56,886 nt of DNA from an uncultured virus (IMG/VR IMGVR_UViG_3300033066_001236) (taxonomy: Duplodnaviria; Heunggongvirae; Uroviricota; Caudoviricetes), in the IMG/VR virus record IMGVR_UViG_3300033066_001236; one strand, 5' to 3'. The notes under the pieces were generated by a model. That model made no database searches and had not been told where the DNA came from. It worked only from the letters and a program-made list of their open reading frames with translations. Shown here in pieces: positions 1-40,364 of this stretch. The first letter of the stretch is position 1. The number at the start of each line of letters is the position of its first letter. The translations under genes were made by a program, and so were the position numbers.

Positions 1-884
1 GAGGCAGGGTACAAGGCTGTTATGGGAATATTGGGATACAGCGCTGAGAACTTCTCCTGGTTATAGGACCTTGTCCGAGCTATGTAGCCCCCGGTTATGT
101 ACTCCGGAGTTGCACCATCGCCCAATGTAATGTTCAGCCTGGTGTACTTGATAGGCTGGGCATATATCAGGTTCTGAATTATTCCGAAGATACCGATCGC
201 CATTGCACTGTTGATCGCCATTGTCTGGTCGAGATCCGCGCAACTCAGGGTGGTCTCCGCCTTCATATCCACGTAGTACTGCATATCTAGGGGTATGAAG
301 GGAATATCGACGTCCCCCGGGAGACCTCTGGGCCAGGTAAGCAGGTCACGTGCAGTGAGGGAATCTATATCGGGTTTTTCCAGATGTGAGACCACGATCT
401 GTCCGAAGTCGTTTTCATTCCCTGAGTCGATCAACATTATGTTTCGGACTCGGCCTCCTTGCTGGCTGTACATCAGTAGATTGCTCAGGATGTGACGACG
501 CGCTTCCGGAGAGTCAACACACATGATCACCACAGAGTTGTTGATGTGTCTGCTAAACGCTGCCTCCATGTTGGGTTTGGTACCCATTGCTCGGAAAGCC
601 TCGACTCTCTCGACAACAGGTATGATTGGGATGTTGAAGGCCCTGGAGTACCGTTGTGCCAACACAGTGGCCTTAGGTTTCCCCACGTCCGTTGCGATAA
701 AGTTTTGGCGCAGGAGGTTCTTTTCCTCGACGACGTCGTCGTCAACAATGGTGATTTCCGGATTCAAGATCCATGCGCAGGTTTTCAGGAACTGGGCTAG
801 CAGGGGGACCAAGCGGGAACCCGTGCCGCCACCGCCTATGATGAGGTACTTGTTGGGAATGTACGTAGAACGATAATTGATCAT
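1..884 (-). CDS. ThiF/E1-like adenylating enzyme, PRTRC-type (3' end runs off the window)
   Basis: Absent from the ORF track because it has no stop in the window. Manual translation from ATG 884: MINYRSTYIPNKYLIIGGGGTGSRL...IVDDDVVEEKNLLRQNF...GKPKA...MCVDS...LIDSGNE...LSCAD. These are the GxGGxG nucleotide-binding loop, the NLxRQ motif and a candidate catalytic Cys at 242-240. Confidence 0.9.
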   Translation of the reverse strand, partial: MINYRSTYIPNKYLIIGGGGTGSRLVPLLAQFLKTCAWILNPEITIVDDDVVEEKNLLRQNFIATDVGKPKATVLAQRYSRAFNIPIIPVVERVEAFRAMGTKPNMEAAFSRHINNSVVIMCVDSPEARRHILSNLLMYSQQGGRVRNIMLIDSGNENDFGQIVVSHLEKPDIDSLTARDLLTWPRGLPGDVDIPFIPLDMQYYVDMKAETTLSCADLDQTMAINSAMAIGIFGIIQNLIYAQPIKYTRLNITLGDGATPEYITGGYIARTRSYNQEKFSALYPNIPITALYPA

Positions 885-933
885 GGGATCCCTTGGGGTA
901 AAAAGAAAGAGAAGGAGTACACTGTACTCCTCT

Positions 934-942
934 CTTATACCG
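934..942 (-). promoter_or_regulatory. GGTATAAG promoter-like motif upstream of the ThiF gene
   Basis: Minus strand reads CGGTATAAG, followed immediately by a GGAGTAC-A-GT-GTACTCC hairpin (about 913-931). Confidence 0.6.
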
Positions 943-965
943 TAAATACGAGTTTTAACGAAAGG

Positions 966-1943
966 TTAGAAGCCGTTTGTTTGGAGTTTCATCTGGCCGT
1001 CCTCGCTCAGCATGTGATAGGCCGTCCGGATTATGTCCAGAAGTCCCTTGTCACAACCCTGCAGTTCAGGCAGGACGCTGTCTACTAACGAATAAGTATC
1101 GGCTACGGTTTTGCCGAACTCCATGAGAAACTCCTCATGAAAAGGGCTAGTATTCTCCGGAAAGGGGGAACCCAGGCGGGGCCCCACTGGATCTTGCTGT
1201 TCCTCCGGGTCGTCTTGCCCTTGTTGTGCTGCAATTACTGACGCGGCAATCGCTTCACCCAGAGTCTCCAGGTTTTCTGATTGCATATACGCCCCTCTCG
1301 CGATCACCGCAGTATCGGGTTCCGCGTCAGGATCTTGACCAACCGACTTGAGCCATGCTGTAAGCTTGGCGTCGTGCTCCTCTACTTCAGAAGGACCCAT
1401 TGGATCGATGAGATCCTGCAGCTTTTTTGCGACGTCCCGCTTTTCCGGAGCTTGCTGCGTCGTTCCGGCGGGACCTACGTTTTTTGGAGTCACCGACCCT
1501 TCGTAATTGTCTGCCATAGCTCCAGCCATATTTCCCCACACGTCTTCCATGTTTGGAAACATCGGGGCTGCCGGGCCACTGGCTCCACCCTCGCTGGTTT
1601 TGTTGGCGGCCGGAGTGCTCGGAGACCACTTAGCAGGGTTTTGGGGGGTAGCCCCTACCTGCATTCGATCCCGAAAGTACTGACCGTACTGGCTCAGGTT
1701 GGTGCCTTGATAACCCTGGTGGGTTTGCACCTCGACTTGGTCAAGCCATTCCGACGGTATGGTTACCTCCGTATTCATTTCAAAGATGTCCTTGAGGTCA
1801 ACCTTCGTCTTGTGGTCGTGCAGGTTGAATCTCATGGTCCATTCGTAGGCGTTGTCGGTGATCTTACCCACAACCCCTGAATAGTAAATCCCCGTTCTGT
1901 CGTTGTTGTCATCAGTGCCACTGAAGAAAGCGCCCATGGTGTT
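966..1943 (-). CDS. JAB/MPN+ metalloprotease (PRTRC protein A-like), exon 2
   Basis: Begins NTMGAFFSGTDDNND, completing the HSH-x-x-M-x-AFFS-x-TDD JAB motif started in exon 1. Ends in a long low-complexity tail. Confidence 0.88.
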   Translation of the reverse strand, partial: NTMGAFFSGTDDNNDRTGIYYSGVVGKITDNAYEWTMRFNLHDHKTKVDLKDIFEMNTEVTIPSEWLDQVEVQTHQGYQGTNLSQYGQYFRDRMQVGATPQNPAKWSPSTPAANKTSEGGASGPAAPMFPNMEDVWGNMAGAMADNYEGSVTPKNVGPAGTTQQAPEKRDVAKKLQDLIDPMGPSEVEEHDAKLTAWLKSVGQDPDAEPDTAVIARGAYMQSENLETLGEAIAASVIAAQQGQDDPEEQQDPVGPRLGSPFPENTSPFHEEFLMEFGKTVADTYSLVDSVLPELQGCDKGLLDIIRTAYHMLSEDGQMKLQTNGF

Positions 1944-2365
1944 CATTTAGTTATGACTAATAATTTTAAAATTAGTCCTTGCTCTACTTAAAATACTAAG
2001 GTAATATCGAGTGTCTCTTATTTAAAGGACACAACAATATGAAAGATCAACTCTCTCAAACCTTAGATTCTAATAAAGAACTTATCGTATTTTGAAAAGT
2101 TCTTGCTACTTCAAAAGCAAGATCTGACTATCTCATCATCTACAGCATGACCTGTTTAGATGTTCGGGGCTCGTGTCTCTATTATTGCCTTACCTGGCTC
2201 AAGAATTAGTCGATACACCTTCCAGCTACTTATTTGGTAGTTTGCTGGCTCGGCACGGTGTTGGCTGAAGAGGCGTTCACCGTTAGCTAGACCAAAGGTC
2301 TAACACCCATTTCTGGTTCTCCGAATTTTATATCCCTGGATTTCTCCAAGGTCGCACCACACTTA
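1944..2365 (-). mobile_element. Group I self-splicing intron (422 nt) in the JAB gene
   Basis: The 5' exon ends in U, and UCGCAU pairs with the IGS GUGCGA with U.G at the splice site. The intron ends in G (..ACUAAAUG). IGS GUGU can pair with 3' exon ACAC (P10). Core motifs: CCGUGCCGAGCC, GAAGGUGUAUCGACUA, GAGAUAGUC. Confidence 0.92.
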
Positions 2366-2980
2366 ATGCGAATGGACGTCTACAACAATGATTGCACCGG
2401 GAGGTAGAGTTTCCGGGTCGTACGTAAACGACACAGAGGCTTTACTCACCGTCTGCTTGGGGACGGAAATGTAGTAGCCCTTGTCGGGCTCCCACAGGAT
2501 CCAGGCATGGGCCTCGTAATCCTGCTTTTTCAGCTTCATGACCTGACGGAAGAACTGCACGAGTTGTTCCCAGTACGAGTACGGGATCTTGCCGGCTGGC
2601 AGGAAGTTGATCTCCTCCCGGACGGTTGTCATTCGTACGTTCTTGATCAAGTCCTTGAACTTGGCGGGGATACCCGGGATCTTGACTCGCACGTGTCGGC
2701 CGCCAATCAGCTCGACGTGCTTGTAGTACTCACCGTTGGCGATGATATACAGCTCTTTGTAGTTCGCGGCTAACGCTTCGGGAACCTGATGGGGCTCCAC
2801 GAGACAGCTCGCATACGGGGACAGGACCAGAAAGTTGACGGAGGCTTGGGCCGTAGCCCTCAGCTCAGCCAGCGGGTCTACCGGCGTTACCGTTTGCGTG
2901 GAGGAGATTATTTGATGGTTCATTGCGTTTTCAAGAGAAAGTTGGGCCGCGTTTTTTAGCTTACGGGATCGTCTACCCAT
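2366..2980 (-). CDS. JAB/MPN+ metalloprotease, exon 1
   Basis: YEAHAWILW...VPKQTVSKASV...VVDVHSH: catalytic Glu and HxH, cut off by the intron. Confidence 0.88.
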
Positions 2981-2985
2981 GATGG

Positions 2986-3840
2986 TTACCTAAATTTGGT
3001 GTAATCGAATTTCTCCTGTTGGGACAAGTAGTTGAACCAACCCGGGATATCGTAGCCTCGGATGGGGATCCCGAGGTCGTTGTTGAAAGGAGAAATGGTA
3101 ATGACGTCGTAGTAGTAAGCTAAACCTCTCAGGTTGTTGTTGAACTCCATGGGGACGATGTTACCGCCGTAGCACATCCGGTAGTCTTCGTAGAAGTTCG
3201 GATAGGGCATCTTCCAGATTTGTTCCCGATAGTCCGCTTCGTTAACTAGGCGGTCCGTGGGTAGTTGTTCAACGGGCTTGGACGTACAGAAGTACTTGAC
3301 CGAAACTACTCGCCAGAGCTTTTTGTCTCGCTTCATCACTACGGAGATAATGACGTTCGGCATGCACACGTTCTTATACACCGTTGGGGGGCCGCCATTG
3401 AGGTGCTTCATGTCGGCTTTACGTTCGGGGATGTAAATGCCAACCTGCATCTCCGTCAGGCTTTGCGCAATCATGTACGCTCCCCTGGGGAGAACCATCA
3501 TGGACATTTGGGTTTCCGTCTGAAGCTGTTGGTCCAACAACTTCTTGAAGTCCAATACGGAGATGCTCTTCCAGAGTCCTTTGATTTCTACATCGACGTG
3601 GGTAGGGTAGATACGAACGGCCTGCATGTCTACCTTATTACCCGAGGCTGATGGGCCTTTTTTCAAAGCTGCCTCTATCACCTTTTTTGTTGTGTCCGGA
3701 AGATTGTCGTACACTTCTTGGGCAACCCATCTTTCAACAGGAGGCGTCGCAACAGCTGCTTGAGCAGGGGGAGCCAAAGGAGTTTCCGAGGGCTCTACCA
3801 CAATCACGGGCTCCGTGAGGTTTTGAGCAGAATCATTCAT
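2986..3840 (-). CDS. Prokaryotic E2-like protein (Prok-E2 family D / PRTRC protein B-like)
   Basis: MPYPNFYEDYRMCYGGN resembles the PxxN-x5-C-x-G E2 active-site segment, and FNNDL follows. It lies between the Ubl and JAB genes. Confidence 0.75.
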   Translation of the reverse strand: MNDSAQNLTEPVIVVEPSETPLAPPAQAAVATPPVERWVAQEVYDNLPDTTKKVIEAALKKGPSASGNKVDMQAVRIYPTHVDVEIKGLWKSISVLDFKKLLDQQLQTETQMSMMVLPRGAYMIAQSLTEMQVGIYIPERKADMKHLNGGPPTVYKNVCMPNVIISVVMKRDKKLWRVVSVKYFCTSKPVEQLPTDRLVNEADYREQIWKMPYPNFYEDYRMCYGGNIVPMEFNNNLRGLAYYYDVITISPFNNDLGIPIRGYDIPGWFNYLSQQEKFDYTKFR

Positions 3841-3851
3841 GTTATTTAACC

Positions 3852-4121
3852 TTAAATGTAGTCGTCGTCACCGACCAGGACATAGTCGTAGTTCACAACA
3901 CTGTTTTCTACGGTTTGAAGGCCCATTACAGGGTTAGCTGCTTGTCGTGCAGGATGGGGAGTGCTGGTAAGATTGCTAAGCAACAAGTTCAGCTCGGCGA
4001 GATTCGTCGGTAGTTTCGACAGTGTCTGGCCTTGTAACAGAATGGTCAGGGCCGCGTCTGACACGCCCATCAGCCCCGATCTGAGTGAATCTAGATCTAT
4101 TTTGTACTCTAACATTTTCAT
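3852..4121 (-). CDS. Hypothetical protein; may be the frameshifted C-terminus of 3976..4779
   Basis: 89-aa ORF that overlaps the upstream ORF by 146 nt and ends just before the E2 start. Confidence 0.45.
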   Translation of the reverse strand: MKMLEYKIDLDSLRSGLMGVSDAALTILLQGQTLSKLPTNLAELNLLLSNLTSTPHPARQAANPVMGLQTVENSVVNYDYVLVGDDDYI

Positions 4122-4779
4122 CTCGGAAAAGTGCCTTACGGGAAAGTGTCTTCAGGATTTTGGTAAAGTCCGACAGGAACAACAGCCATCTGTAGGACTC
4201 GTGAGGTGGCCAGTTTCTCGACTTCGGTATTACCTCGAGATATATATACCGGTCGTCTATGCCGGGTTGATAGTTGGTACTGTGAAAGATATCCAGGTTA
4301 AGACCTAGTTGGTCCGCTCGATAGGAGAGCATTCTACGGTAACGAGCGACAACCGGATCGTTCTGTACCGACAGTCCTATCCCCATTCCGTCGTACCCTT
4401 TATAGAGGTAGGGTAGGATGAAGTTTTCGTACAGCTCGTTGGGCAGGACCGGGTCTGTTGTAGGGTTGGCATTGGCACGTTGGGCCGCAGGTTTCTCAAC
4501 CATGTGCGGGTTGTCTTTCTGAAACCCAACAACCAGAAGATCAATAAGCTTCTGTCTGGAGTGTCTCGACCGGTTGGGGTCTGTGAAGTCTAATCCCGCT
4601 TTGAAATTCCTGCTAATCAACTTGTTGTGCAACAGTCTCTCAACGGAGAAGGCGAGTAACGTGCCTACGATTAAGTCTCGCTCAAGCGAGGCTCTGGAGT
4701 TTAAGAGCGCACTGCTCAGTGTGTTGTTTACTTTTGTAACCACAAGCAAACCTTTCAAAGATAGACTAAAAAAAACCAA
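3976..4779 (-). CDS. Hypothetical protein inside the Ubl cassette
   Basis: 267-aa ORF co-oriented between Ubl and E2. The start is uncertain (TTG next to a T8 run). Confidence 0.6.
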   Translation of the reverse strand: MVFFSLSLKGLLVVTKVNNTLSSALLNSRASLERDLIVGTLLAFSVERLLHNKLISRNFKAGLDFTDPNRSRHSRQKLIDLLVVGFQKDNPHMVEKPAAQRANANPTTDPVLPNELYENFILPYLYKGYDGMGIGLSVQNDPVVARYRRMLSYRADQLGLNLDIFHSTNYQPGIDDRYIYLEVIPKSRNWPPHESYRWLLFLSDFTKILKTLSRKALFRDENVRVQNRSRFTQIGADGRVRRGPDHSVTRPDTVETTDESRRAELVA

Positions 4780-4814
4780 GACTTCAGCATTCCATCTTGA
4801 TTTTTCACCAGGCT

Positions 4815-5009
4815 TTAGCCCTTCGTGCCGGTTCGCGGACGGAAGGTGAACACGGTGTCACCGCCCTCCGTGGTTTGCTCGGCCACCATGGAGGCGATGC
4901 CTGCCACGCTGTCGGAGAAGGTGGACGCCACTTGAGCGGAGGTCCAGTGGGTACCCGGCAGGGTGAAGGTTTGGCTGGTCGTGGCGATCACAACGCGAGT
5001 TTGTGCCAT
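4815..5009 (-). CDS. Ubiquitin-like small protein (PRTRC protein C-like)
   Basis: 64 aa, beta-rich, ending FTFRPRTGTKG; the GTKG terminus is typical of PRTRC protein C. Has an AAGGA RBS and C-ending codon bias. Confidence 0.85.
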   Translation of the reverse strand: MAQTRVVIATTSQTFTLPGTHWTSAQVASTFSDSVAGIASMVAEQTTEGGDTVFTFRPRTGTKG

Positions 5010-5094: not shown

Positions 5095-5103
5095 TTTATA
5101 CCA
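5095..5103 (-). promoter_or_regulatory. TGGTATAA promoter-like motif for the Ubl cassette
   Basis: Minus strand reads TGGTATAAA, about 90 nt upstream of the Ubl start. Confidence 0.6.
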
Positions 5104-5172: not shown

Positions 5173-6834
5173 ATGGAAAACCTACCAAATCACATACCCT
5201 TGAAAGAGGGGCCCATCCGGGTGACGACCTCACAGCTAGCCAAGGCCCTAATCCATCTAAAGGGTAAGCCCCTTGACTTGATCGACTACTTGCCGATGAC
5301 TGAGGTGTACGACTGCGACCCTCCGAAGATGACAGTCAAGGCGTCTAGACAGGTAGGTAAGTCCGCAGGGTTAGGTGCGATTCTGACTCTGAAGGTTATA
5401 GCCATCCCCTACGTTACGGCCATCTACATAGCGCCGCTTGCGACTCAGACATCTCGATTCAGTACCTCTTATCTGGATCCGTATCTGAACTCCCCAATGG
5501 TCAAGAAGTACTTCCGGGACACAAACTCCAAGAAGAACGTATTTGAGAAGAGTTTGAGCAACAGTTCCGTCATCTACTTGACCTATGCCGAGACTGCTCA
5601 AGACGCTGACCGAGTCCGGGGGATTCCCGGGGACATAGCCATGTACGATGAGGTACAGGACATACAACACGACACTCTAGGTATCGTGAACGAAGCTTTG
5701 TCCGCCTCCAAGTTTGGCTGGGTCAAGCACTTTGGTACCGCCAAGACGGAACACAACACCCTAGAGGTTCTTTTCAAAGACAGCAACGGTCTTGAATGGT
5801 GTATCAAGTGCCCCCACTGCGGCAAGTGGAACGTTCCGGACAATCACGACACTTGTATCCGGATGTGTTCCGGCAAAGAAGGCCCGGTGTGTTCTCACTG
5901 TTACAAGCCGGTTGATGTAAGACAGGGGCGTTGGGTAGCAGCTAGACCCTGGAAAACAAATCACTACGGATTTCACGTACCTCGTTTCATTATCCCGGAA
6001 CGGTGTACGCCTAAGTACTGGGCCGACATTCACGAGAAGATAGAGAAGTACAAACCGTCCCTTCTGGATAACGAAGTCTTTGGCTTGGCCTCGGGCATTG
6101 CGGGCCGGATCCTATCCCAACGAGAGGCCATGGTTTGCTGCAACACGAACAAAACTCAGTTTGACAAGGGATGGCCTCAGGATTCACGGGGCATCTGCTC
6201 CGTGGTGCTAGGGGTCGACTGGTCCGTTACTGCTGGGGTGGCTTCGTACACCGTTATCACGATACTGGGGTACGACTACATGGGTAAGTGCTATGTGTTG
6301 TACTCGGAGAGATTGAACGGTATTGACATCTTGGATCAAGTACGAAGGGTGGAGCAGTTGGCTTTGCTGTACAACGTTCAGATGGTAGGGAGTGACCGTG
6401 GGTGCGGACAGTTACAGTTCGAGTTGCTAAGGTCCTCCCTCGGGGCGGACAGGGTAATACCGATTCAGTACTGTGCGGCCAAGCAAAGGTTGCGCTACGA
6501 CCAGGCCGGGGGCTACCTTGCGGCGGATAGATCCCAGATAATGGACTTGGTCTTCCTCAAGATGAAGCTTGGGGTGGACAAGTTTGAGACCCCTGCATGG
6601 AGCTTGATGGAGAACTTCTGGTCTGACGCCCTATCCATCTACGAGGAAGAATCCATATCAGGTCGAAGACTATACCGCAAGGACGACGGATCTACGGATG
6701 ACTGGTTTCATTCGGTGGTTTTTGCTCATACGGCCTGGATGTGCGTGTCAGGACAGTTCGACATACGAGACCAAATGCTTTATTCTCAAGAGGAAGAGCA
6801 AGGGTTCCCGTTCTTTGAAGGGCAGGGTAACTAA
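5173..6834 (+). CDS. Terminase large subunit (GpA-like)
   Basis: Walker A variant KASRQVGKS, Walker B MYDEVQD, CPHC...CSHC zinc ribbon, and RNase H-like VLGVDW and DDWFHS. Confidence 0.85.
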   Translation: MENLPNHIPLKEGPIRVTTSQLAKALIHLKGKPLDLIDYLPMTEVYDCDPPKMTVKASRQVGKSAGLGAILTLKVIAIPYVTAIYIAPLATQTSRFSTSYLDPYLNSPMVKKYFRDTNSKKNVFEKSLSNSSVIYLTYAETAQDADRVRGIPGDIAMYDEVQDIQHDTLGIVNEALSASKFGWVKHFGTAKTEHNTLEVLFKDSNGLEWCIKCPHCGKWNVPDNHDTCIRMCSGKEGPVCSHCYKPVDVRQGRWVAARPWKTNHYGFHVPRFIIPERCTPKYWADIHEKIEKYKPSLLDNEVFGLASGIAGRILSQREAMVCCNTNKTQFDKGWPQDSRGICSVVLGVDWSVTAGVASYTVITILGYDYMGKCYVLYSERLNGIDILDQVRRVEQLALLYNVQMVGSDRGCGQLQFELLRSSLGADRVIPIQYCAAKQRLRYDQAGGYLAADRSQIMDLVFLKMKLGVDKFETPAWSLMENFWSDALSIYEEESISGRRLYRKDDGSTDDWFHSVVFAHTAWMCVSGQFDIRDQMLYSQEEEQGFPFFEGQGN

Positions 6835-12146: not shown

Positions 12147-15100
12147 ATGCTAGTAGACAATTCTCAATCAGTATTTCAAGATAGTTTTTCAGAAGAGGTG
12201 TGGACTTCTACCTACAAAGACCACAAAGACAATAACGTGACTGATATGTTCCGTCGGGTAGCTAATCACATGGCTTCGGCGGAAGAGACGGAAGAGAAGA
12301 AAGCCGAGTGGGCAGAGAAGTTTTACGACTTGCTGTCAAATTTCCGAGGAGTGGCGGGTGGCCGAATAAGTGCCAACGCTGGTACTGAATGGGGTGGTAC
12401 CACCCTGGCTAACTGCTACGTCGGGCCTCTGCCCGACTATGATCTGGATTCCATCTCGGGAATCTACTCTGTCCTTGTAGACCAAGCCAACACTTTGAAA
12501 TCAGAGGGTGGCTGGGGCATGGACTTTAGCTGGATTCGCCCCCGGGGCTCCTTCATCAAGGGAGTCGGAGTCGAGTCCCCTGGGTCCGTTAGGTTCATGG
12601 AGTTATTCGACAAAAGCTCCGAGATTGTGACCGCAGGGTCTGGCCGTAAGACAACCAAGAAAAAGGCTAAGGGCAAGATTCGTAAGGGTGCTATGATGGC
12701 CACTCTTGCGGTATGGCACCCCGACATTGTCGAGTTCATTACCGCCAAGCAAACAGCCGGCCGTCTGTCCAAGTTCAATATGTCGGTCAATTGTACCGAC
12801 GTGTTCATGGAGAGAGTCCTAAAAATCGATGAGCTGAAAAGAAAGCTAGTAGATTCGGACGACCTGATCTCTATTCAAAAAAACTGGGCCCTTCAGACAG
12901 AGATTGACGCTCTTGAGACTTGGGACCTTATGTTCCCTGATACTACCCATGCTAGCTACAAGAGCCTGTGGAAGGGTAATATCGAAGACTGGCTTTCCAG
13001 AGGCCTGCCTGTAAACGTATACGAGACTACAACGGTCTCTCGTTTATGGAACCTGATCATGGAGTCGACGTATAACCGTAACGAGCCGGGAGTACTATTC
13101 CTTGACCGCGCTAACAAGTTTTTGCCGTTCTCATACGGGGAAAGTATTCTAAGTACTAATCCTTGCTTTACTGGAGATACGGAAACGTTGACCCGTCAGG
13201 GTTATCGTAGACTGGACTCTCTAGTAGGGCAAAAGGTTGAGATTTGGAATGGCTTTGAGTGGTCGGAAGTTACCCCGAAGGTTACGGCCGTTAATCAACG
13301 GATTCTAGATCTCGAATTTTCAAATGGAGCTACTCTAGCCTGTACTCCGTACCATACGTTCCATCTCCAAGACGGAGTTAAAGTTCAGGCCAAAGATCTG
13401 GTTGTAGGGAACACCATCGCAGCCCATAGTTTTCCAGTTATCAACTCTGGAACGGAAGACCCTCAAGCTTACACCAAAGGGTTTTACTCGGGAGATGGAA
13501 GCGTCAATCATTCCCAAATCTGGCTATATGGGGACAAGACAAACTTGATAGACAACTTGGATGTCAAGACGGTGTCTGACCAAACGGTTGGGGCTACTAA
13601 GCGACTACTAGTTTGTCTCAATTTGGGAGACTGGAATAAAGAGTATGTTCCCTCCGTTGAGACCTCGGTTAGTTCTAGACTTGACTGGTTGGCAGGCCTG
13701 TTTGACTCTGACGGTTCTGTCCTCAAAGACGGTTCTATACAAGTCTGGTCTATAAACAAGGGCTTTCTGATCAACGTTCAGAAGCTACTAAACAGTTTAG
13801 GAACAACTGGAAAAGTAGTACTTGGCAAGGCTGCTACCACTAAGTTAATGCCGGACGGTAACGGAGGAAAGAAAGAGTATTTCTGTCAAGACTCGTGGAG
13901 GTTACAGATCTCTGGTTTTAACGTGGTCAAGTTGAGAGAGATAGGTTTGCAAACACATAGACTTGACCTTTCGTATACTCCGAGTAGGGAAGCCACTCAT
14001 TATCCTAAAGTAACAAAAGTAAGCGAGCGAGCAACACTTGAAGCAAAAGTCTATTGTTTCACCGAACCGAAACAACACACTGGCATCTTTAATTCCATAT
14101 ATGCAGGCCAATGCGGTGAACAGACCCTGGCTCCCGGAGGAGTGTGCTGTCTAGGTACCTTGAACTTGACTCAGTTTATTACGGAAGACGGAACAAGTTT
14201 CGACTTGGACGCCCTGAGTAAGTACACGGGATATTTGGTCCGATTCTTAGACAACGTTAACACAATCTCTGCCACCCCGCTGCATGCATACACGGAGTCT
14301 ATGCGCCATAAGCGCAGAATCGGCTGCGGCGTTATGGGGTGGGGCTCGGCCCTTATCATGATGGGAGTCAGGTTTGGTTCGGAACGGGCCGGACAGCTTC
14401 GCGAGCAGGTGATGTCCACCTATGCTCGTGCTGCTTACATGGCCAGTATTGACCTAGCAGAAGAAAAAGGAAAGTTTACACATTGTGATCCAGCAAAACA
14501 CGCACAGGGGCTTTTTGTCCAAAGCCTGGGGCTTCCTAAAGAATACATGGAGAAGCTTGCTACTGTGGGTATTCGTAATAGCTCTCTCCTTTCTCAGCAG
14601 CCTAATGGTAACGGGTCTATACTTGCCAATATAGTTACTGGAGGGATGGAGCCCGTCTTCATGACGGAATACATCAGAACGGTGATCCAGGCAATTGTGC
14701 CAGACCACCTGAAAGAAGTAACCCCTAACTTCCACCAGGGAGAGTTTCATGAGACTAGCTTCTTCAAGCTGACCAAAGAAGGCGACGAAGACATCTTACG
14801 AGGGGTAGACGAACACGGAACCGTCTGGAAGATAGACCGCAATCGTGGCCTGACCAAAGAGGTGCTGTGTGAGGACTACGGAGTTCGCTACCGCAAGAAG
14901 AAGGGTATATGGGACCCTAAAGCTGATTACGTAGTAACAACAGAGGGGTTGACAGTTAAGGAGCACGTTGAAGACCTCCAAGGCTTTGCTCGTTGGACTG
15001 ACTCGGCATGTTCCAAGACATGCAACATTCCTAACGACTACCCGTACGAGGACTTCAAAACCTTGTATCTGGACGTCTATAAGACCGGCTACATCAAAGG

Positions 15101-15704
15101 ATTTACGACGTATCGTTCCGGGACAATGACTTCGGTTCTATCCGCTGTCAAAGAAACGGAACAAACCGAGCAGCACGAAGAAGAGATCATTCTGGAAGAG
15201 ATCAAGCTGCCGGACTCTCTCCCTGCAACCCTAAAGACCATCAAGTCAGAAGGGCGTAAGTGGTACCTGACAGTCATAATGAATGACACTCAGACACGTC
15301 CCGTTGCGCTGTTTGCCCAAACAAACGCCCACGAAAAGAGTGTTACAACTACTGACGCAGTGGAGCATCTGGAAGCCTTGGCGAGACAGAAGGGAATCCC
15401 CGCAAAGTACATAGAAGAAACTCTGCAAAAGACGGCTGGTGATAGCAACACTACCAAGATTTGCCGCATGATCTCTTTATGCTTACGCCACGGAGTTCTC
15501 ATTCGAAACGTAGTCAGTGCTTTGGAAAAGGTTGACTGTATTGCCGGGACGTTTGTGTTCCACATTAGGAAGTACTTGGCAACCATGATCAAGGACGGTG
15601 AAAAGGTAACAAACGAGACTTGTCAGGAATGCGGGTCTACAAACGTTGTTTACCGAGAAGGCTGTAAAGTCTGCGCCAACTGCGGTAGTAGCAAGTGTGG
15701 CTAA
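12147..15704 (+). CDS. nrdJ: Ribonucleotide reductase, class II (B12-dependent), containing an intein
   Basis: GGRI, ANC, EPGVLFLD, TNP|CGEQ after intein removal, RRIGCG, KGFTTYR and a C-terminal CxxC...CxxC zinc ribbon. No nrdB is adjacent. Confidence 0.9.
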   Translation: MLVDNSQSVFQDSFSEEVWTSTYKDHKDNNVTDMFRRVANHMASAEETEEKKAEWAEKFYDLLSNFRGVAGGRISANAGTEWGGTTLANCYVGPLPDYDLDSISGIYSVLVDQANTLKSEGGWGMDFSWIRPRGSFIKGVGVESPGSVRFMELFDKSSEIVTAGSGRKTTKKKAKGKIRKGAMMATLAVWHPDIVEFITAKQTAGRLSKFNMSVNCTDVFMERVLKIDELKRKLVDSDDLISIQKNWALQTEIDALETWDLMFPDTTHASYKSLWKGNIEDWLSRGLPVNVYETTTVSRLWNLIMESTYNRNEPGVLFLDRANKFLPFSYGESILSTNPCFTGDTETLTRQGYRRLDSLVGQKVEIWNGFEWSEVTPKVTAVNQRILDLEFSNGATLACTPYHTFHLQDGVKVQAKDLVVGNTIAAHSFPVINSGTEDPQAYTKGFYSGDGSVNHSQIWLYGDKTNLIDNLDVKTVSDQTVGATKRLLVCLNLGDWNKEYVPSVETSVSSRLDWLAGLFDSDGSVLKDGSIQVWSINKGFLINVQKLLNSLGTTGKVVLGKAATTKLMPDGNGGKKEYFCQDSWRLQISGFNVVKLREIGLQTHRLDLSYTPSREATHYPKVTKVSERATLEAKVYCFTEPKQHTGIFNSIYAGQCGEQTLAPGGVCCLGTLNLTQFITEDGTSFDLDALSKYTGYLVRFLDNVNTISATPLHAYTESMRHKRRIGCGVMGWGSALIMMGVRFGSERAGQLREQVMSTYARAAYMASIDLAEEKGKFTHCDPAKHAQGLFVQSLGLPKEYMEKLATVGIRNSSLLSQQPNGNGSILANIVTGGMEPVFMTEYIRTVIQAIVPDHLKEVTPNFHQGEFHETSFFKLTKEGDEDILRGVDEHGTVWKIDRNRGLTKEVLCEDYGVRYRKKKGIWDPKADYVVTTEGLTVKEHVEDLQGFARWTDSACSKTCNIPNDYPYEDFKTLYLDVYKTGYIKGFTTYRSGTMTSVLSAVKETEQTEQHEEEIILEEIKLPDSLPATLKTIKSEGRKWYLTVIMNDTQTRPVALFAQTNAHEKSVTTTDAVEHLEALARQKGIPAKYIEETLQKTAGDSNTTKICRMISLCLRHGVLIRNVVSALEKVDCIAGTFVFHIRKYLATMIKDGEKVTNETCQECGSTNVVYREGCKVCANCGSSKCG
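13164..14111 (+). mobile_element. Intein (316 aa) with LAGLIDADG endonuclease and C-terminal Gln
   Basis: Starts CFTGDT after TNP. Block B CTPYH, GFYSGDG and LAGLFDSDG motifs. Ends VYCFTEP...IYAGQ before the +1 Cys. Confidence 0.93.
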
Positions 15705-19652: not shown

Positions 19653-20289
19653 TACGAAAGTTAGTCGACTCAGGGGGCGACCCCTGATGAATAAAAGTGG
19701 CTCAAACGGCGAAAGCGTGAAAACGTAACACCGTACCAAAACCGACAGGCAACTTCGGCGACGGTCTAGAGACTTATAGGGTGTCTACCCCAAGTTCAAC
19801 AAAACTTGGCACGACATCACTAGGATGGAAGAAATCGATTTCGAAAGCATGTTTAGCCTTTGTCTGGGCCTCAGAGTACTTTCCGTTTCGCACGGTAAGC
19901 CCCTTATAACGCTCAGTCAGCAACAACATGCGTCGCTTCTTTTCGGGCTCTTGTATGTAGGGTAAAAGCTTACTGATAGCAGTCAATGCTTTGTCGTTAG
20001 CGATTTTCCAACTATACGATTGTTTGTGGTGGGCTTTGTATACCTTATGAGTACTTATGTGACCTCCAAAAGTCGTCACGTAGAGCTCTAACAGGTTAAG
20101 GGACGTGCTAGACATAGAAAGAACCGGGTAACGAAACATTAAGTTGTTCGCCCGGGTACACATCGTCACCGTTCCCTCACCATCAAACAGCCCTGCTAAA
20201 TAAGCTAATCGTAATTGTTCTTCCATAAATGCCACTCTCTCATGGTTGAGATATTACCATGAGATGAAGGAATAGTCCACAGAAGTGTG
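19653..20289 (+). mobile_element. Group I intron (637 nt) in the tmRNA T-loop
   Basis: Exon UCGAU pairs with intron GUCGA (U.G splice pair). Terminal G present. Core motifs: AAACGGCGAAAGC, ACACCGUACCAAA, GGUCUAGAGACU, GAAUAGUCC. Removal restores the 7-nt loop TTCGATT. Confidence 0.88.
19774..20226 (-). CDS. Single-motif LAGLIDADG homing endonuclease, antisense inside the tmRNA intron
   Basis: AYLAGLFDGEG...FGGHI...SYSWKI...KLLPYIQEPEK. ATG at 20226, or GTG at 20235. Confidence 0.9.
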   Translation of the reverse strand: MEEQLRLAYLAGLFDGEGTVTMCTRANNLMFRYPVLSMSSTSLNLLELYVTTFGGHISTHKVYKAHHKQSYSWKIANDKALTAISKLLPYIQEPEKKRRMLLLTERYKGLTVRNGKYSEAQTKAKHAFEIDFFHPSDVVPSFVELGVDTL

Positions 20290-22115: not shown

Positions 22116-22529
22116 ATGAACATCGACATCCTGCGTGCCAACCCGACCGCTTCTGCCCTGCTGGCCGGTATTGGCGTCAACATCGGCGACGCCGTCCAGA
22201 TGGCCAACGCTGCCCAGGCCGAACTGATGAAGCGCAAGACCGCTGAAGAAGCTGCTGCCATCGCCAGTCTGGTCGCCGGCTTCGAAGCTGCCGCCATCTC
22301 CAACGTGGGCCACCAGACCGATCTGCGGACCCAACTGGAAACCGCCGAAGCCAACCTGGCTGCCCTGGCCAAGGCCAAGGACTACATGCTGGCAGGCAAC
22401 AGCTCCTGGCCCCTGAAGAAGCTGATCGGCATCCCCGTGCCCAAGGACATCAAGGACGCCAAGCTGGACGAAGTGCCCGCCGGCTGGACAGCACCGGCTG
22501 CGGCCCCCGCCGCCTCCCCTGCTGCCTGA
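22116..22529 (+). CDS. Hypothetical Ala-rich protein
   Basis: AAGGAG RBS, host-like codon bias, and a terminator (AAAGCCGTC..GACGGCTTTTT) downstream. Confidence 0.8.
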   Translation: MNIDILRANPTASALLAGIGVNIGDAVQMANAAQAELMKRKTAEEAAAIASLVAGFEAAAISNVGHQTDLRTQLETAEANLAALAKAKDYMLAGNSSWPLKKLIGIPVPKDIKDAKLDEVPAGWTAPAAAPAASPAA

Positions 22530-37672: not shown

Positions 37673-37961
37673 GTGTCCTTAGCTCAGTTGGATAGAGCAA
37701 CAGCCTTCTGAAATTTCGGGCCTCTATGAGGAAACTTGTAGAGTGTAACTGGTCAAACTCAGGGAAGCCTAAGTGGTCCGCATTCTAACGAATGTCCATA
37801 AGGTAATCCTGAGCCAAGCCCGGGTAAAACCGGGAAGGTGCAGAGACTTGACGGCCAGGATCTAACGCGAAAGCCATGATCAAGAGAAAGTCCAAGGAGT
37901 GGCGAAAGTCACACAAACTTGAAGCTGTGGGTCGGGGGTTCGAATCCCTCAGGACACGCCA
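37673..37961 (+). tRNA. tRNA-Arg(UCU), intron-containing (exons 37673-37709 and 37922-37961)
   Basis: Spliced anticodon arm ACAGC-CTTCT|AA-GCTGT; GTGTCCT/AGGACAC acceptor; CCA. Confidence 0.93.
37710..37921 (+). mobile_element. Compact group I intron (212 nt) after anticodon position 36
   Basis: AAACUCAGGGAAGCCUAA, AAUCCUGAGCCAAGC, GAAGGUGCAGAGACU, GAGAAAGUCC, terminal G. Confidence 0.93.
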
Positions 37962-39599: not shown

Positions 39600-40364
39600 C
39601 AACCGTTGCATCTTGGTTCGAACTGTAGTAAAATACAGTTTAATCAGGAGAATGCGGATGTCAACTAAAAACAGGCGAGTTGTTAACGGGTATGTTTTGC
39701 TTTACAGGCCGGACCATTTCAATTGTTTCTCTTCCTCCGACTGGAAGGGATACGTGTATGAGCATCGGTATGTTATGGAGCAACACTTAGGTAGAGCTCT
39801 AAGTTCCACAGAACTAGTGCATCACTTAGATTGCGACAAAACAAACAACCAGTTGAGTAACTTGATTGTTCTGTCCCGAGCTGACCACGTCAAGCTGCAC
39901 GGATGGATAGACAATGGTGCCCCTATATGCGAAAGCTATAGGGAGAACGGGGTGAATTCAGGGAAAGCTAACCCTTCAGGTAGAGTTTGTCAAGTGTGCG
40001 AAGGTAGTCTATCTTCAACTCAAAAACAGACTTGTAGTAGAACTTGTCATAACCAACATCTGGCCCGCGTTAGCAGAAAAGTAGAACGACCTTCGTTCGA
40101 ACAACTGACTGAAGACTACAAAAACTTATCGATCGTCAAGATTGGTAAAAAATACGGAGTCTCTGACAACGCAGTCAGGAAGTGGATGGCGGGTTACCTC
40201 AAAGGCATGTCAACCCTGAGCCAAGCCGATGATACATCGTCGGAAGGTGCAGAGACTAGTGGAGGGGTTCAGTCCCCTTAATAACCACATTAGCGCCCCG
40301 GTCCCTAACGTAAAGTCGAGGGATGTGAGATAGTCCAGGGAGTACAGAAATGTACACAAACCGG
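39600..40364 (+). mobile_element. Group I intron (765 nt) with HNH homing endonuclease
   Basis: IGS GUG (39916-18) lies before P2 CCCUAUA/UAUAGGG. Core: GAAUUCAGGGAAAGC, AACCCUGAGCCAAGC, GAAGGUGCAGAGACU, GAGAUAGUCC. Terminal G. Confidence 0.92.
39658..40281 (+). CDS. Intron-encoded HNH homing endonuclease with C-terminal zinc finger/HTH
   Basis: YVYEHRYVME...VHHLDCDKTNN..SNL...HVKLH; CQVC..CSRTC; IGKKYGVSDNAVRKW. Confidence 0.9.
   Translation: MSTKNRRVVNGYVLLYRPDHFNCFSSSDWKGYVYEHRYVMEQHLGRALSSTELVHHLDCDKTNNQLSNLIVLSRADHVKLHGWIDNGAPICESYRENGVNSGKANPSGRVCQVCEGSLSSTQKQTCSRTCHNQHLARVSRKVERPSFEQLTEDYKNLSIVKIGKKYGVSDNAVRKWMAGYLKGMSTLSQADDTSSEGAETSGGVQSP

Follow-up and report, generated by a model that had tools for sequence, protein, structure and literature searches.

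In the present study, we analyzed a DNA window of 56,886 nucleotides (nt) from an uncultured virus (IMG/VR IMGVR_UViG_3300033066_001236; Caudoviricetes) and found that positions 1 to 5,009 were filled by six co-oriented minus-strand genes in the order Ubl-X-Y-E2-JAB-E1. They encode a ubiquitin-like protein (Ubl), two proteins of no known family (X and Y), an E2-like protein, a JAB protease and a ThiF/E1 enzyme. As judged from sequence, the cassette works like the PRTRC/6d systems of plasmids and integrative and conjugative elements (ICEs) and descends from the PRTRC/6d family; it is, on the same basis, a core feature of a phage clade with genomes of about 170-190 kb, reported here for the first time. 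We consider it fairly probable that the phage runs its own protein conjugation for host takeover or for the control of replication or transcription, in the non-structural (early or middle) phase of infection. The window is phage DNA and contains tRNA genes, a transfer-messenger RNA (tmRNA), thyA, an RNA ligase and nrd genes. The original prediction, made from the letters and their open reading frames (ORFs), had described a five-gene cassette, Ubl-X-E2-JAB-E1. All of its ORFs were found on the minus strand; the prediction had overlooked the sixth gene, Y (3852-4121), and JAB lies in two exons. The features are as follows:

4815..5009, minus strand: Ubl, homologue of PRTRC C and Prok_Ub; 64 aa, beta-grasp, mature C-terminus GTKG
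3976..4779, minus strand: X, conserved and fast-evolving, without a known family; occupies the slot of PRTRC F
3852..4121, minus strand: Y, small protein of 87-89 aa that overlaps the X end; [FY][IVL] tail conserved at the C-terminus, acidic in most cases
2986..3840, minus strand: E2-like protein, homologue of Prok-E2_D and PRTRC B; putative catalytic Cys223
2366..2980, minus strand: JAB exon 1, with JAB-N, catalytic Glu and HSH; TIGR03735 positions 64-143; ends DVHSH at the 5' splice site
1944..2365, minus strand: group I intron of 422 nt, lacking any ORF of at least 40 aa; directly follows the second zinc His codon
966..1943, minus strand: JAB exon 2, NTMGAFFSGTDD with the zinc Asp, a low-complexity linker and a C-terminal helical domain ending TNGF; TIGR03735 positions 145-189
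1..884, minus strand: E1 of the ThiF family, truncated at the window edge; SCADLDQ contains the putative catalytic Cys215

Homology of Ubl, E2 and E1 to conjugation proteins

The 64-aa protein whose GTKG end had been noted was the Ubl at 4815-5009 on the minus strand, with RTGTKG as its last residues. Its AlphaFold model, with a predicted local distance difference test score (pLDDT) of 86, contained four strands and one helix, and the top matches in a fold search were GB1, Fubi, TINCR, MoaD, FAT10 and ISG15. A beta-grasp fold had been expected, and the best matches of the predicted structure were beta-grasp proteins (Z 4.7-5.8). The comparison of Ubl with PRTRC C (four plasmid C proteins) by hhalign yielded 91.6% (E 8e-7), and Prok_Ub matched 6 of the 29 Ubl family members at E<=1, the best at 0.0016. 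The codon usage of the highly expressed type that had been reported for Ubl was also observed: C-ending codons were used in 9/9 two-way codons (small numbers), against 0.60-0.76 in the other cassette genes.

The E2-like protein with PxxN..C.G was present as predicted, at 2986-3840, with the sequence PYPNFYEDYRMCYGGN. Pfam Prok-E2_D matched 43 of 50 E2 family members at E<=0.1 (best 3e-10), and hhalign against PRTRC B gave 88% (E 3e-6) with the Cys aligned. The structure model had a pLDDT of 94, and the top 18 of 48,161 chains were all titled E2 or UBC, which indicated the anticipated UBC-like fold, at a modest Z of 4.0-4.8. The Cys was conserved in 49 of the 50 sequences.

The ThiF/E1 enzyme was likewise found where it had been placed, on the minus strand from 884 to beyond base 1 (Pfam ThiF, 9e-15). 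Its best model was TIGR03736 (PRTRC_ThiF), one of the PRTRC families, which we take to span the TIGR03734-03742 range; the score of 82.9 bits was below the cut-off of 144.75. The protein contains a single ThiF domain from residue 12, and the alignment of 27 E1 sequences covered 289 profile positions, in which Cys215 and Arg59 were invariant (27/27). Because Cys215 is invariant and resembles the PSCS motif of PRTRC ThiF, we regard it as the putative catalytic Cys. The PDB search aligned the adenylation half only, and the relatives end in variable low-complexity tails. In Vibrio phage D69 (L003 14200-14520), no ATG, GTG or TTG stands at the opening of the E1 frame, which seems to start at ATT or ATC and is annotated short. 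A terminator-like hairpin (912-932, minus strand) lies between JAB and E1 in the window and could lower E1 output.

ThiF-type E1 enzymes are nearest in kind to sulfur-relay activators, MoaD was among the fold matches of Ubl, and the window contains 18 tRNA genes. These observations would fit a non-protein acceptor, or a Ubl that serves as a sulfur carrier (a ThiS/MoaD/Urm1-like thiocarboxylate), for example for phage tRNAs. We regard such a role as improbable: the operon always includes a JAB and an E2 whose Cys is invariant, and no rhodanese, desulfurase or tRNA thiolase is present among the six cassette genes.

A group I intron in the JAB zinc site

The JAB protease had been taken for one ORF. 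It was present on the minus strand, as two exons parted by a group I intron that had been overlooked. The ORF at 2980-2363 stops at DVHSH, the ORF at 1946-966 opens with MNTMGAFFSGTDD, and relatives without the intron read HSHNTMGAFFSGTD at the JAB zinc motif; intron removal would yield a 530-aa JAB from the start at 2980. TIGR03735 was matched by 28 of 29 JAB members, the best at 80.4 bits, under the cut-off of 101.8. The Glu and both His residues were found in 29/29 members, and the Ser and Asp in 27/29, the two gaps being the split genes. The N-terminal part, viewed without alignment to a known JAB-N, had an invariant Arg48 and no invariant Trp, and the C-terminal domain was common to many relatives. 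The JAB-N domain of PRTRC/6d has been described with a strictly conserved Arg and Trp (PMC1779556, available part).

The match of the intron to RF00028 (24.9 bits, E 0.00037) was below the gathering score of 50. Its P1 had 6/6 pairs with U.G at the splice site, P10 had 4/4 pairs, P7 was formed by GACUA/AUAGUC, and the last letter was G. Loci L093 and L145 had homologous JAB introns at the same site; in L147 the homologous intron lay two codons earlier. The introns of L093 (7308-8452) and L145 carry an antisense 290-aa ORF with what we take to be a LAGLIDADG-like motif; the L147 intron has no ORF.

Four RNA-library runs from one wastewater study and four runs of unrecorded type contained sequences nearly identical to the window. 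The assembled contigs of four of these eight runs (X1, X2, X3 and X5) were checked for the junction. The exact exon junction 1943-2366 was observed in contigs of two of the three RNA runs examined, at a depth of 47 in X1 and 22 in X3, alongside intron-bearing contigs at 64 and 40; it was not listed for the contigs of X2 or X5. The junction contigs held just 30 letters on one side of the joint. These results confirmed the intron boundaries. DNA may be present in the RNA libraries, because depth was flat across genes of both strands. Splicing in RNA is likely, on contigs that do not separate splicing from an intron-less allele and with strain variants present. The variants in the wastewater runs carried substitutions clustered in E1 and the JAB linker (window 614-729, 1215-1464 and 1435-1943).

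Comparison with known systems

PRTRC corresponds to the type 6d operon that Iyer, Burroughs and Aravind predicted in 2006 (PMC1779556, available part). Like PRTRC/6d, the cassette contains a homologous Ubl (C), an E2 of family D (B), a JAB with an N-terminal domain (A) and a stand-alone ThiF E1, which is without rhodanese in both, and its order Ubl-X-Y-E2-JAB-E1 matches the PRTRC order C-F-B-A-ThiF. The GxKG end is shared with PRTRC C, and some C proteins have tails beyond the Gly. However, all parts score below the curated PRTRC cut-offs, X and Y stand without detectable homology where PRTRC has the alpha-helical F between C and B, the E2 is without the downstream His conserved in PRTRC/6d E2s, and the JAB, unlike PRTRC A, has a long linker, a C-terminal helical domain and an intron. 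Moreover, the cassette belongs to the core gene set of a phage clade, whereas PRTRC is plasmid/ICE cargo. ParB and protein E were absent directly upstream of Ubl in the window and in Salmonella phage Arash; no ParB scan was made of the remaining window. Because the adjacent ParB and E and the E2 His are lacking and F is unrecognisable, we classify the cassette as a divergent PRTRC/6d variant and not as a member. The PRTRC-like identity put forward earlier is thus backed by homology, folds and invariant catalytic residues. Neither an experimental PRTRC/6d study nor a phage-encoded system of this kind was found in the literature within reach, which excluded most subscription journals and bioRxiv supplements; JAB and Ubl do not occur in the available part of a jumbo-phage overview (PMC7824862).

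The Bub (6E/DUF6527) and CBASS Cap2/Cap3 systems also represent bacterial E1-E2-JAB conjugation, to which the predicted chemistry of the cassette would correspond. Cap2 fuses E1 and E2 and acts on the cyclase. No cassette protein matched DUF6527. Bub proteins are fusions that form Tyr/Ser oxyesters and work without cysteines (PMC11601596, available part), whereas the cassette parts are stand-alone and carry the Cys in 27/27 E1 and 49/50 E2 sequences. Bil (BilABCD) resembles the cassette in its separate Ubl, E2, JAB and E1 genes, in its multi-Ubl proteins and in that no dedicated E3 is predicted (PMC11601596, available part). However, Bil defends the host that encodes it by tagging a phage tail protein, and the cassette is phage-encoded; the Bil E1 is of the form IAD-AAD-CYS, with inactive and active adenylation domains and a CYS domain, whereas the cassette has a single ThiF-type domain in E1, an E2 of family D, and X and Y in addition.

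Distribution and selection of the cassette

All six genes were present in the same order in Salmonella phage Arash (gp251c-246c) and Vibrio phage D69, and matching E1 and JAB genes were found in D181 and D148. These four were the only GenBank phages with a terminase more than 40% identical to that of the window (the next was 25%), and all four cultured phages carry E1 and JAB. Their cassette genes are annotated as hypothetical or structural. Among 33 loci chosen from cassette-gene scans, roughly one per phage, Ubl was found in 33, E2 in 33, JAB in 32 and E1 in 31, the gaps being contig ends. A terminase-anchored scan yielded 63 loci, with terminases 37-70% identical to that of the window. Where at least 5.5 kb was available upstream, Ubl, E2, JAB and E1 were present in 41 of 43 loci, a figure that overstates independence as set out below, and the two remaining loci had E2 elsewhere on the contig. 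The scan also brought in the new contigs L145, L147, L149, L153 and L173, all with the cassette. Among 13 more distant terminase loci (30-34% identity), a cassette gene was nearby in 0 of the 8 with enough flank, and E1 was found in 0 of 5 contigs with distant terminases (19-80% complete).

The cassette had no close cellular relative (best E 4e-27). Distant E1-JAB-E2 cassettes were observed in Anaerolineae, Clostridia and cyanobacterial genomes (L197-L276), with the Ubl family in 7/80 and X or Y in 0/80. More distant E1 genes (and JAB/E2 genes) were also observed in phages of 190-245 kb (L037, L039, LC597490, PV796108, OM634661 and KU935715), which include Bacillus and Acinetobacter isolates.

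Ratios of nonsynonymous to synonymous substitution rates (dN/dS) were obtained for four pairs of relatives. They were 0.06-0.10 for JAB, 0.07-0.16 for E1, 0.11-0.14 for E2 (two pairs saturated), 0.16-0.21 for X, 0.17-0.24 for Y and 0-0.46 for Ubl. The ratio was below 0.5 in every measurable gene pair, with several dS values above 1, which indicated purifying selection. PRTRC cassettes are mobile, and ParB and E are not adjacent in the window, as would suit a selfish or decaying PRTRC passenger from a plasmid or ICE with no role in infection. This seems very improbable, as the cassette is fixed across a clade with terminases 37-70% identical to that of the window, is under strong purifying selection, has its nearest cellular relative only at the distance given above, and carries introns that interrupt the zinc motif and have to be removed from it by splicing.

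A role in counter-defence had been proposed for the cassette. In a dedicated form, the cascade would tag and so disable a particular host defence protein, or a decoy Ubl would flood the host's Bil/CBASS-type conjugation. We regard this as unlikely. Anti-defence genes are usually patchy, and the cassette occurs in nearly every checkable clade member, across such dissimilar hosts as Salmonella and Vibrio; because it is near-universal in the clade, narrow counter-defence fits poorly. The fastest divergence within the cassette, that of X and Y, would suit such a role, but both are under purifying, not positive, selection. The high-expression codon bias of Ubl and its amplification in 8/33 loci would also suit it, but a decoy Ubl would need no E1, E2 or JAB of its own. 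Bacterial E1-E2-JAB systems do act in antiphage defence (PMC11601596, available part).

Precursor forms of Ubl

The invariance of GxKG is partly by construction, because the Ubl alignment was cut at GxKG. Among Ubl family matches shorter than 100 aa, 83/106 ended exactly at this motif, 20 had a short tail and 3 were without it. In 8 of the 33 loci, 2-5 Ubl units were encoded in a row, with GxKG closing each, and several loci had short tails beyond the Ubl Gly; these poly-Ubl units and tails therefore need a protease. D69 encodes a tri-Ubl. Poly-Ubl forms were found in more distant Ubl-family members as well and are not unique to the phage clade. The Ubl of the window is already mature and needs no trimming; JAB is retained nevertheless. 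Eukaryotic polyubiquitin and ubiquitin-extension genes are alike in their head-to-tail repeats, their short C-terminal caps and the fusion to an unrelated protein, of which one Ubl example was found here; the comparison is an analogy of gene architecture only, and the cassette-family fusion is a single record. That fusion, protein P0091, is a Ubl joined after GTKG to a homologue of a stand-alone window gene:

22116..22529, plus strand: Z, stand-alone 137-aa gene; homologue fused behind Ubl in protein P0091

The match between P0091 and Z had a BLASTP E of 2e-9. Among 743 window segments compared with P0091, Z was the best (E 1.6e-11), and its score was reached by 0/2000 shuffles. Z is a candidate lead for an extension partner or substrate of Ubl. 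It was present in one of five related genomes and is limited to a subclade, which ruled it out as a universal Ubl substrate. One near-identical metagenome locus was found for Z; its Atlas matches were all below 0.9, and its structure model was poor. No other relative of similar length was found for P0091, and the fusion may be an assembly artefact. The tails of four distant Ubl fusions had no match among the window sequences.

The X and Y proteins

The ORF of no known family that had been noted between Ubl and E2 was X, at 3976-4779 on the minus strand, which probably starts at about 4743. Across 28 sequences, the X family shared the motif RY and a C-terminal TLxRK helix. It belonged to no Pfam, NCBIfam or PHROG family, the Atlas search gave no usable match, and the profile search returned 3 proteins only. 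A Phage_Hfq match in 1 of the 28 proteins was rejected as chance. The PRTRC_F profile matched 0/28 X proteins, and the hhalign probability of X against F was 0.1%, obtained with just four poorly aligned F-slot proteins. Y had no known family match in the searches made. Its C-terminus was [FY][IVL] in 29/29 sequences, with an acidic residue immediately before in 21/29, and may by analogy resemble a docking tail such as those of T7 gp2.5 and SSB. Clamp docking does not fit this tail, which has no motif of the QxxLF type. X and Y are real but highly divergent families, the fastest-diverging genes of the cassette. An expanded version was observed in L073 (1999-10553), in which the X/Y slot is taken by a 782-aa protein and the open frames of E2 and E1 are 484 and 1053 aa long.

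Promoter class and expression

Two features lie beyond the cassette:

5096..5103, minus strand: promoter motif TGGTATAA, upstream of Ubl; non-structural gene class
5173..6834, plus strand: terminase large subunit (Pfam GpA_ATPase), divergent neighbour and clade marker

The cassette had been described as divergent from the terminase and as carrying the phage's own promoter motif, and both statements agreed with our results. The terminase at 5173-6834 lies head-to-head on the opposite strand, 163 nt from Ubl, the first cassette gene, and, with an upstream motif that looks different by eye, is probably not co-regulated with the cassette. The motif TGGTATAA occurred at 15 window sites against 1.03 expected, and in 23 of 27 relatives it preceded the Ubl start by no more than 200 nt. 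In Arash, 24/24 sites were on the minus strand, that of the replication, nucleotide-metabolism and tRNA genes, and the plus strand holds the terminase, portal, capsid and tail genes. We therefore assign the cassette to the non-structural class; its position beside the terminase looks like a module boundary. A scan for sigma-70 promoters found about as many sites as expected by chance (6 vs 5.0). The motif (C/T)TAAAAT, picked by eye as a late promoter ahead of several Arash structural genes and the window terminase, was set aside for its weak counts (CTAAAAT, 9 on the plus strand vs 5 on the minus strand). The Arash genome includes genes for a beta/beta' RNA polymerase and sigma factors of its own; it is described as free of lysogeny genes in the available part of PMC10585845.

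The same part of that source lists cassette proteins in an Arash particle preparation: Gp248 (JAB) with 2 peptides, Gp249 (E2) with 5, Gp251 (X) with 2, and Gp247, E1 by numbering, with 3. Such peptides, the head-to-head arrangement with the terminase in most loci and the lambdoid TAPI/TAPK precedent (PMC1779556, available part) would suit a function in packaging DNA or, as had been suggested, in assembling virions, comparable to that of the lambda tail Ubl/JAB pair. However, the list of 116 proteins includes ribonucleotide reductase and ligases, with 2-5 peptides per cassette gene and with Ubl and Y not listed (PMC10585845, available part); because metabolic enzymes are included, the peptides show expression and not a virion role. 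In addition, the terminase linkage is broken or loosened in L166, L191 and L176. Because the promoter and strand in Arash are of the non-structural class, an assembly role is disfavoured, and we consider it quite improbable.

Proposed mechanism

Phage-run conjugation, the reading that we favour, would proceed in five steps. The operon would be read from the TGGTATAA promoter, the motif of which is present and suggests the timing. The intron would then self-splice and restore the JAB zinc site, consistent with the junction in RNA-run contigs. By homology and residue invariance, E1 is predicted to adenylate the C-terminal Gly of Ubl, load it on Cys215 and hand it to Cys223 of E2. E2 would pass Ubl to protein targets, which X and Y likely select as target-selecting subunits, X being the candidate specificity subunit; this is the weakest step. 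JAB would cut after GxKG, maturing the poly-Ubl and extended precursors of the relatives, and would remove the tag where Ubl is mature. The most likely purpose would be to mark host or phage proteins of transcription and replication, which would be switched off, re-routed or removed during cell takeover.

The protein-tagging pathway of the original prediction gained support from sequence homology and modelled folds, from the invariance of the catalytic residues, from the signs of purifying selection and from the poly-Ubl precursors of relatives, with conjugation itself still a matter of inference. Several points weigh against it. Conjugates, thioesters and targets are all putative, and the timing would follow from a promoter motif. 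The fold Z-scores of the Ubl and E2 models are modest (below 6). No His was present in the invariant or near-invariant columns of 50 E2s, unlike the 6d E2s, whose downstream His is described as absolutely conserved (PMC1779556, available part); the region reads SPFNNDL in the cassette E2 vs FTH/FAH in 3/4 plasmid B proteins. X and Y are of no known family, and their partnership with E2 is a prediction. The count of 41/43 overstates independence, because cassette-bearing phages served as seeds for the profile and many loci repeat one phage. The chemistry cannot be assumed from family names alone, as is shown by the related Bub systems, which form Tyr/Ser oxyesters (PMC11601596, available part).

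A bolder reading, which we offer only tentatively, is that the clade depends on a full cascade (E1, E2, E3-like X/Y and deconjugase) for takeover, the first such core system in a lytic group of phages. It would include polyubiquitin-like and Ubl-extension forms, the acidic-aromatic tail of Y would dock on the replication or transcription machinery, and splicing would gate the deconjugase. Because the cassette is fixed in a clade with cultured members, on a laboratory strain of Salmonella and on Vibrio, conjugates, targets and essentiality are directly testable, and 6d/PRTRC tagging, long predicted, becomes accessible by infection. If host proteins are indeed tagged, the cassette would be to viruses what Bil/CBASS conjugation is to hosts, and would add a new way of taking over the cell.

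Other observations in the window

A permuted (two-piece) tmRNA (RF04321; 20250-20433) was observed beside an antisense ORF (19774-20235), which by its motif looks like a LAGLIDADG endonuclease. A permuted tmRNA hints at an alpha- or betaproteobacterial host. Two further group I introns lie at 37698-37914 and 39899-40357, apparently within tRNA genes, and the latter overlaps an HNH-like ORF at 39613-40281. Finally, the ribonucleotide reductase at 12147-15704 carries an intein and a LAGLIDADG domain.

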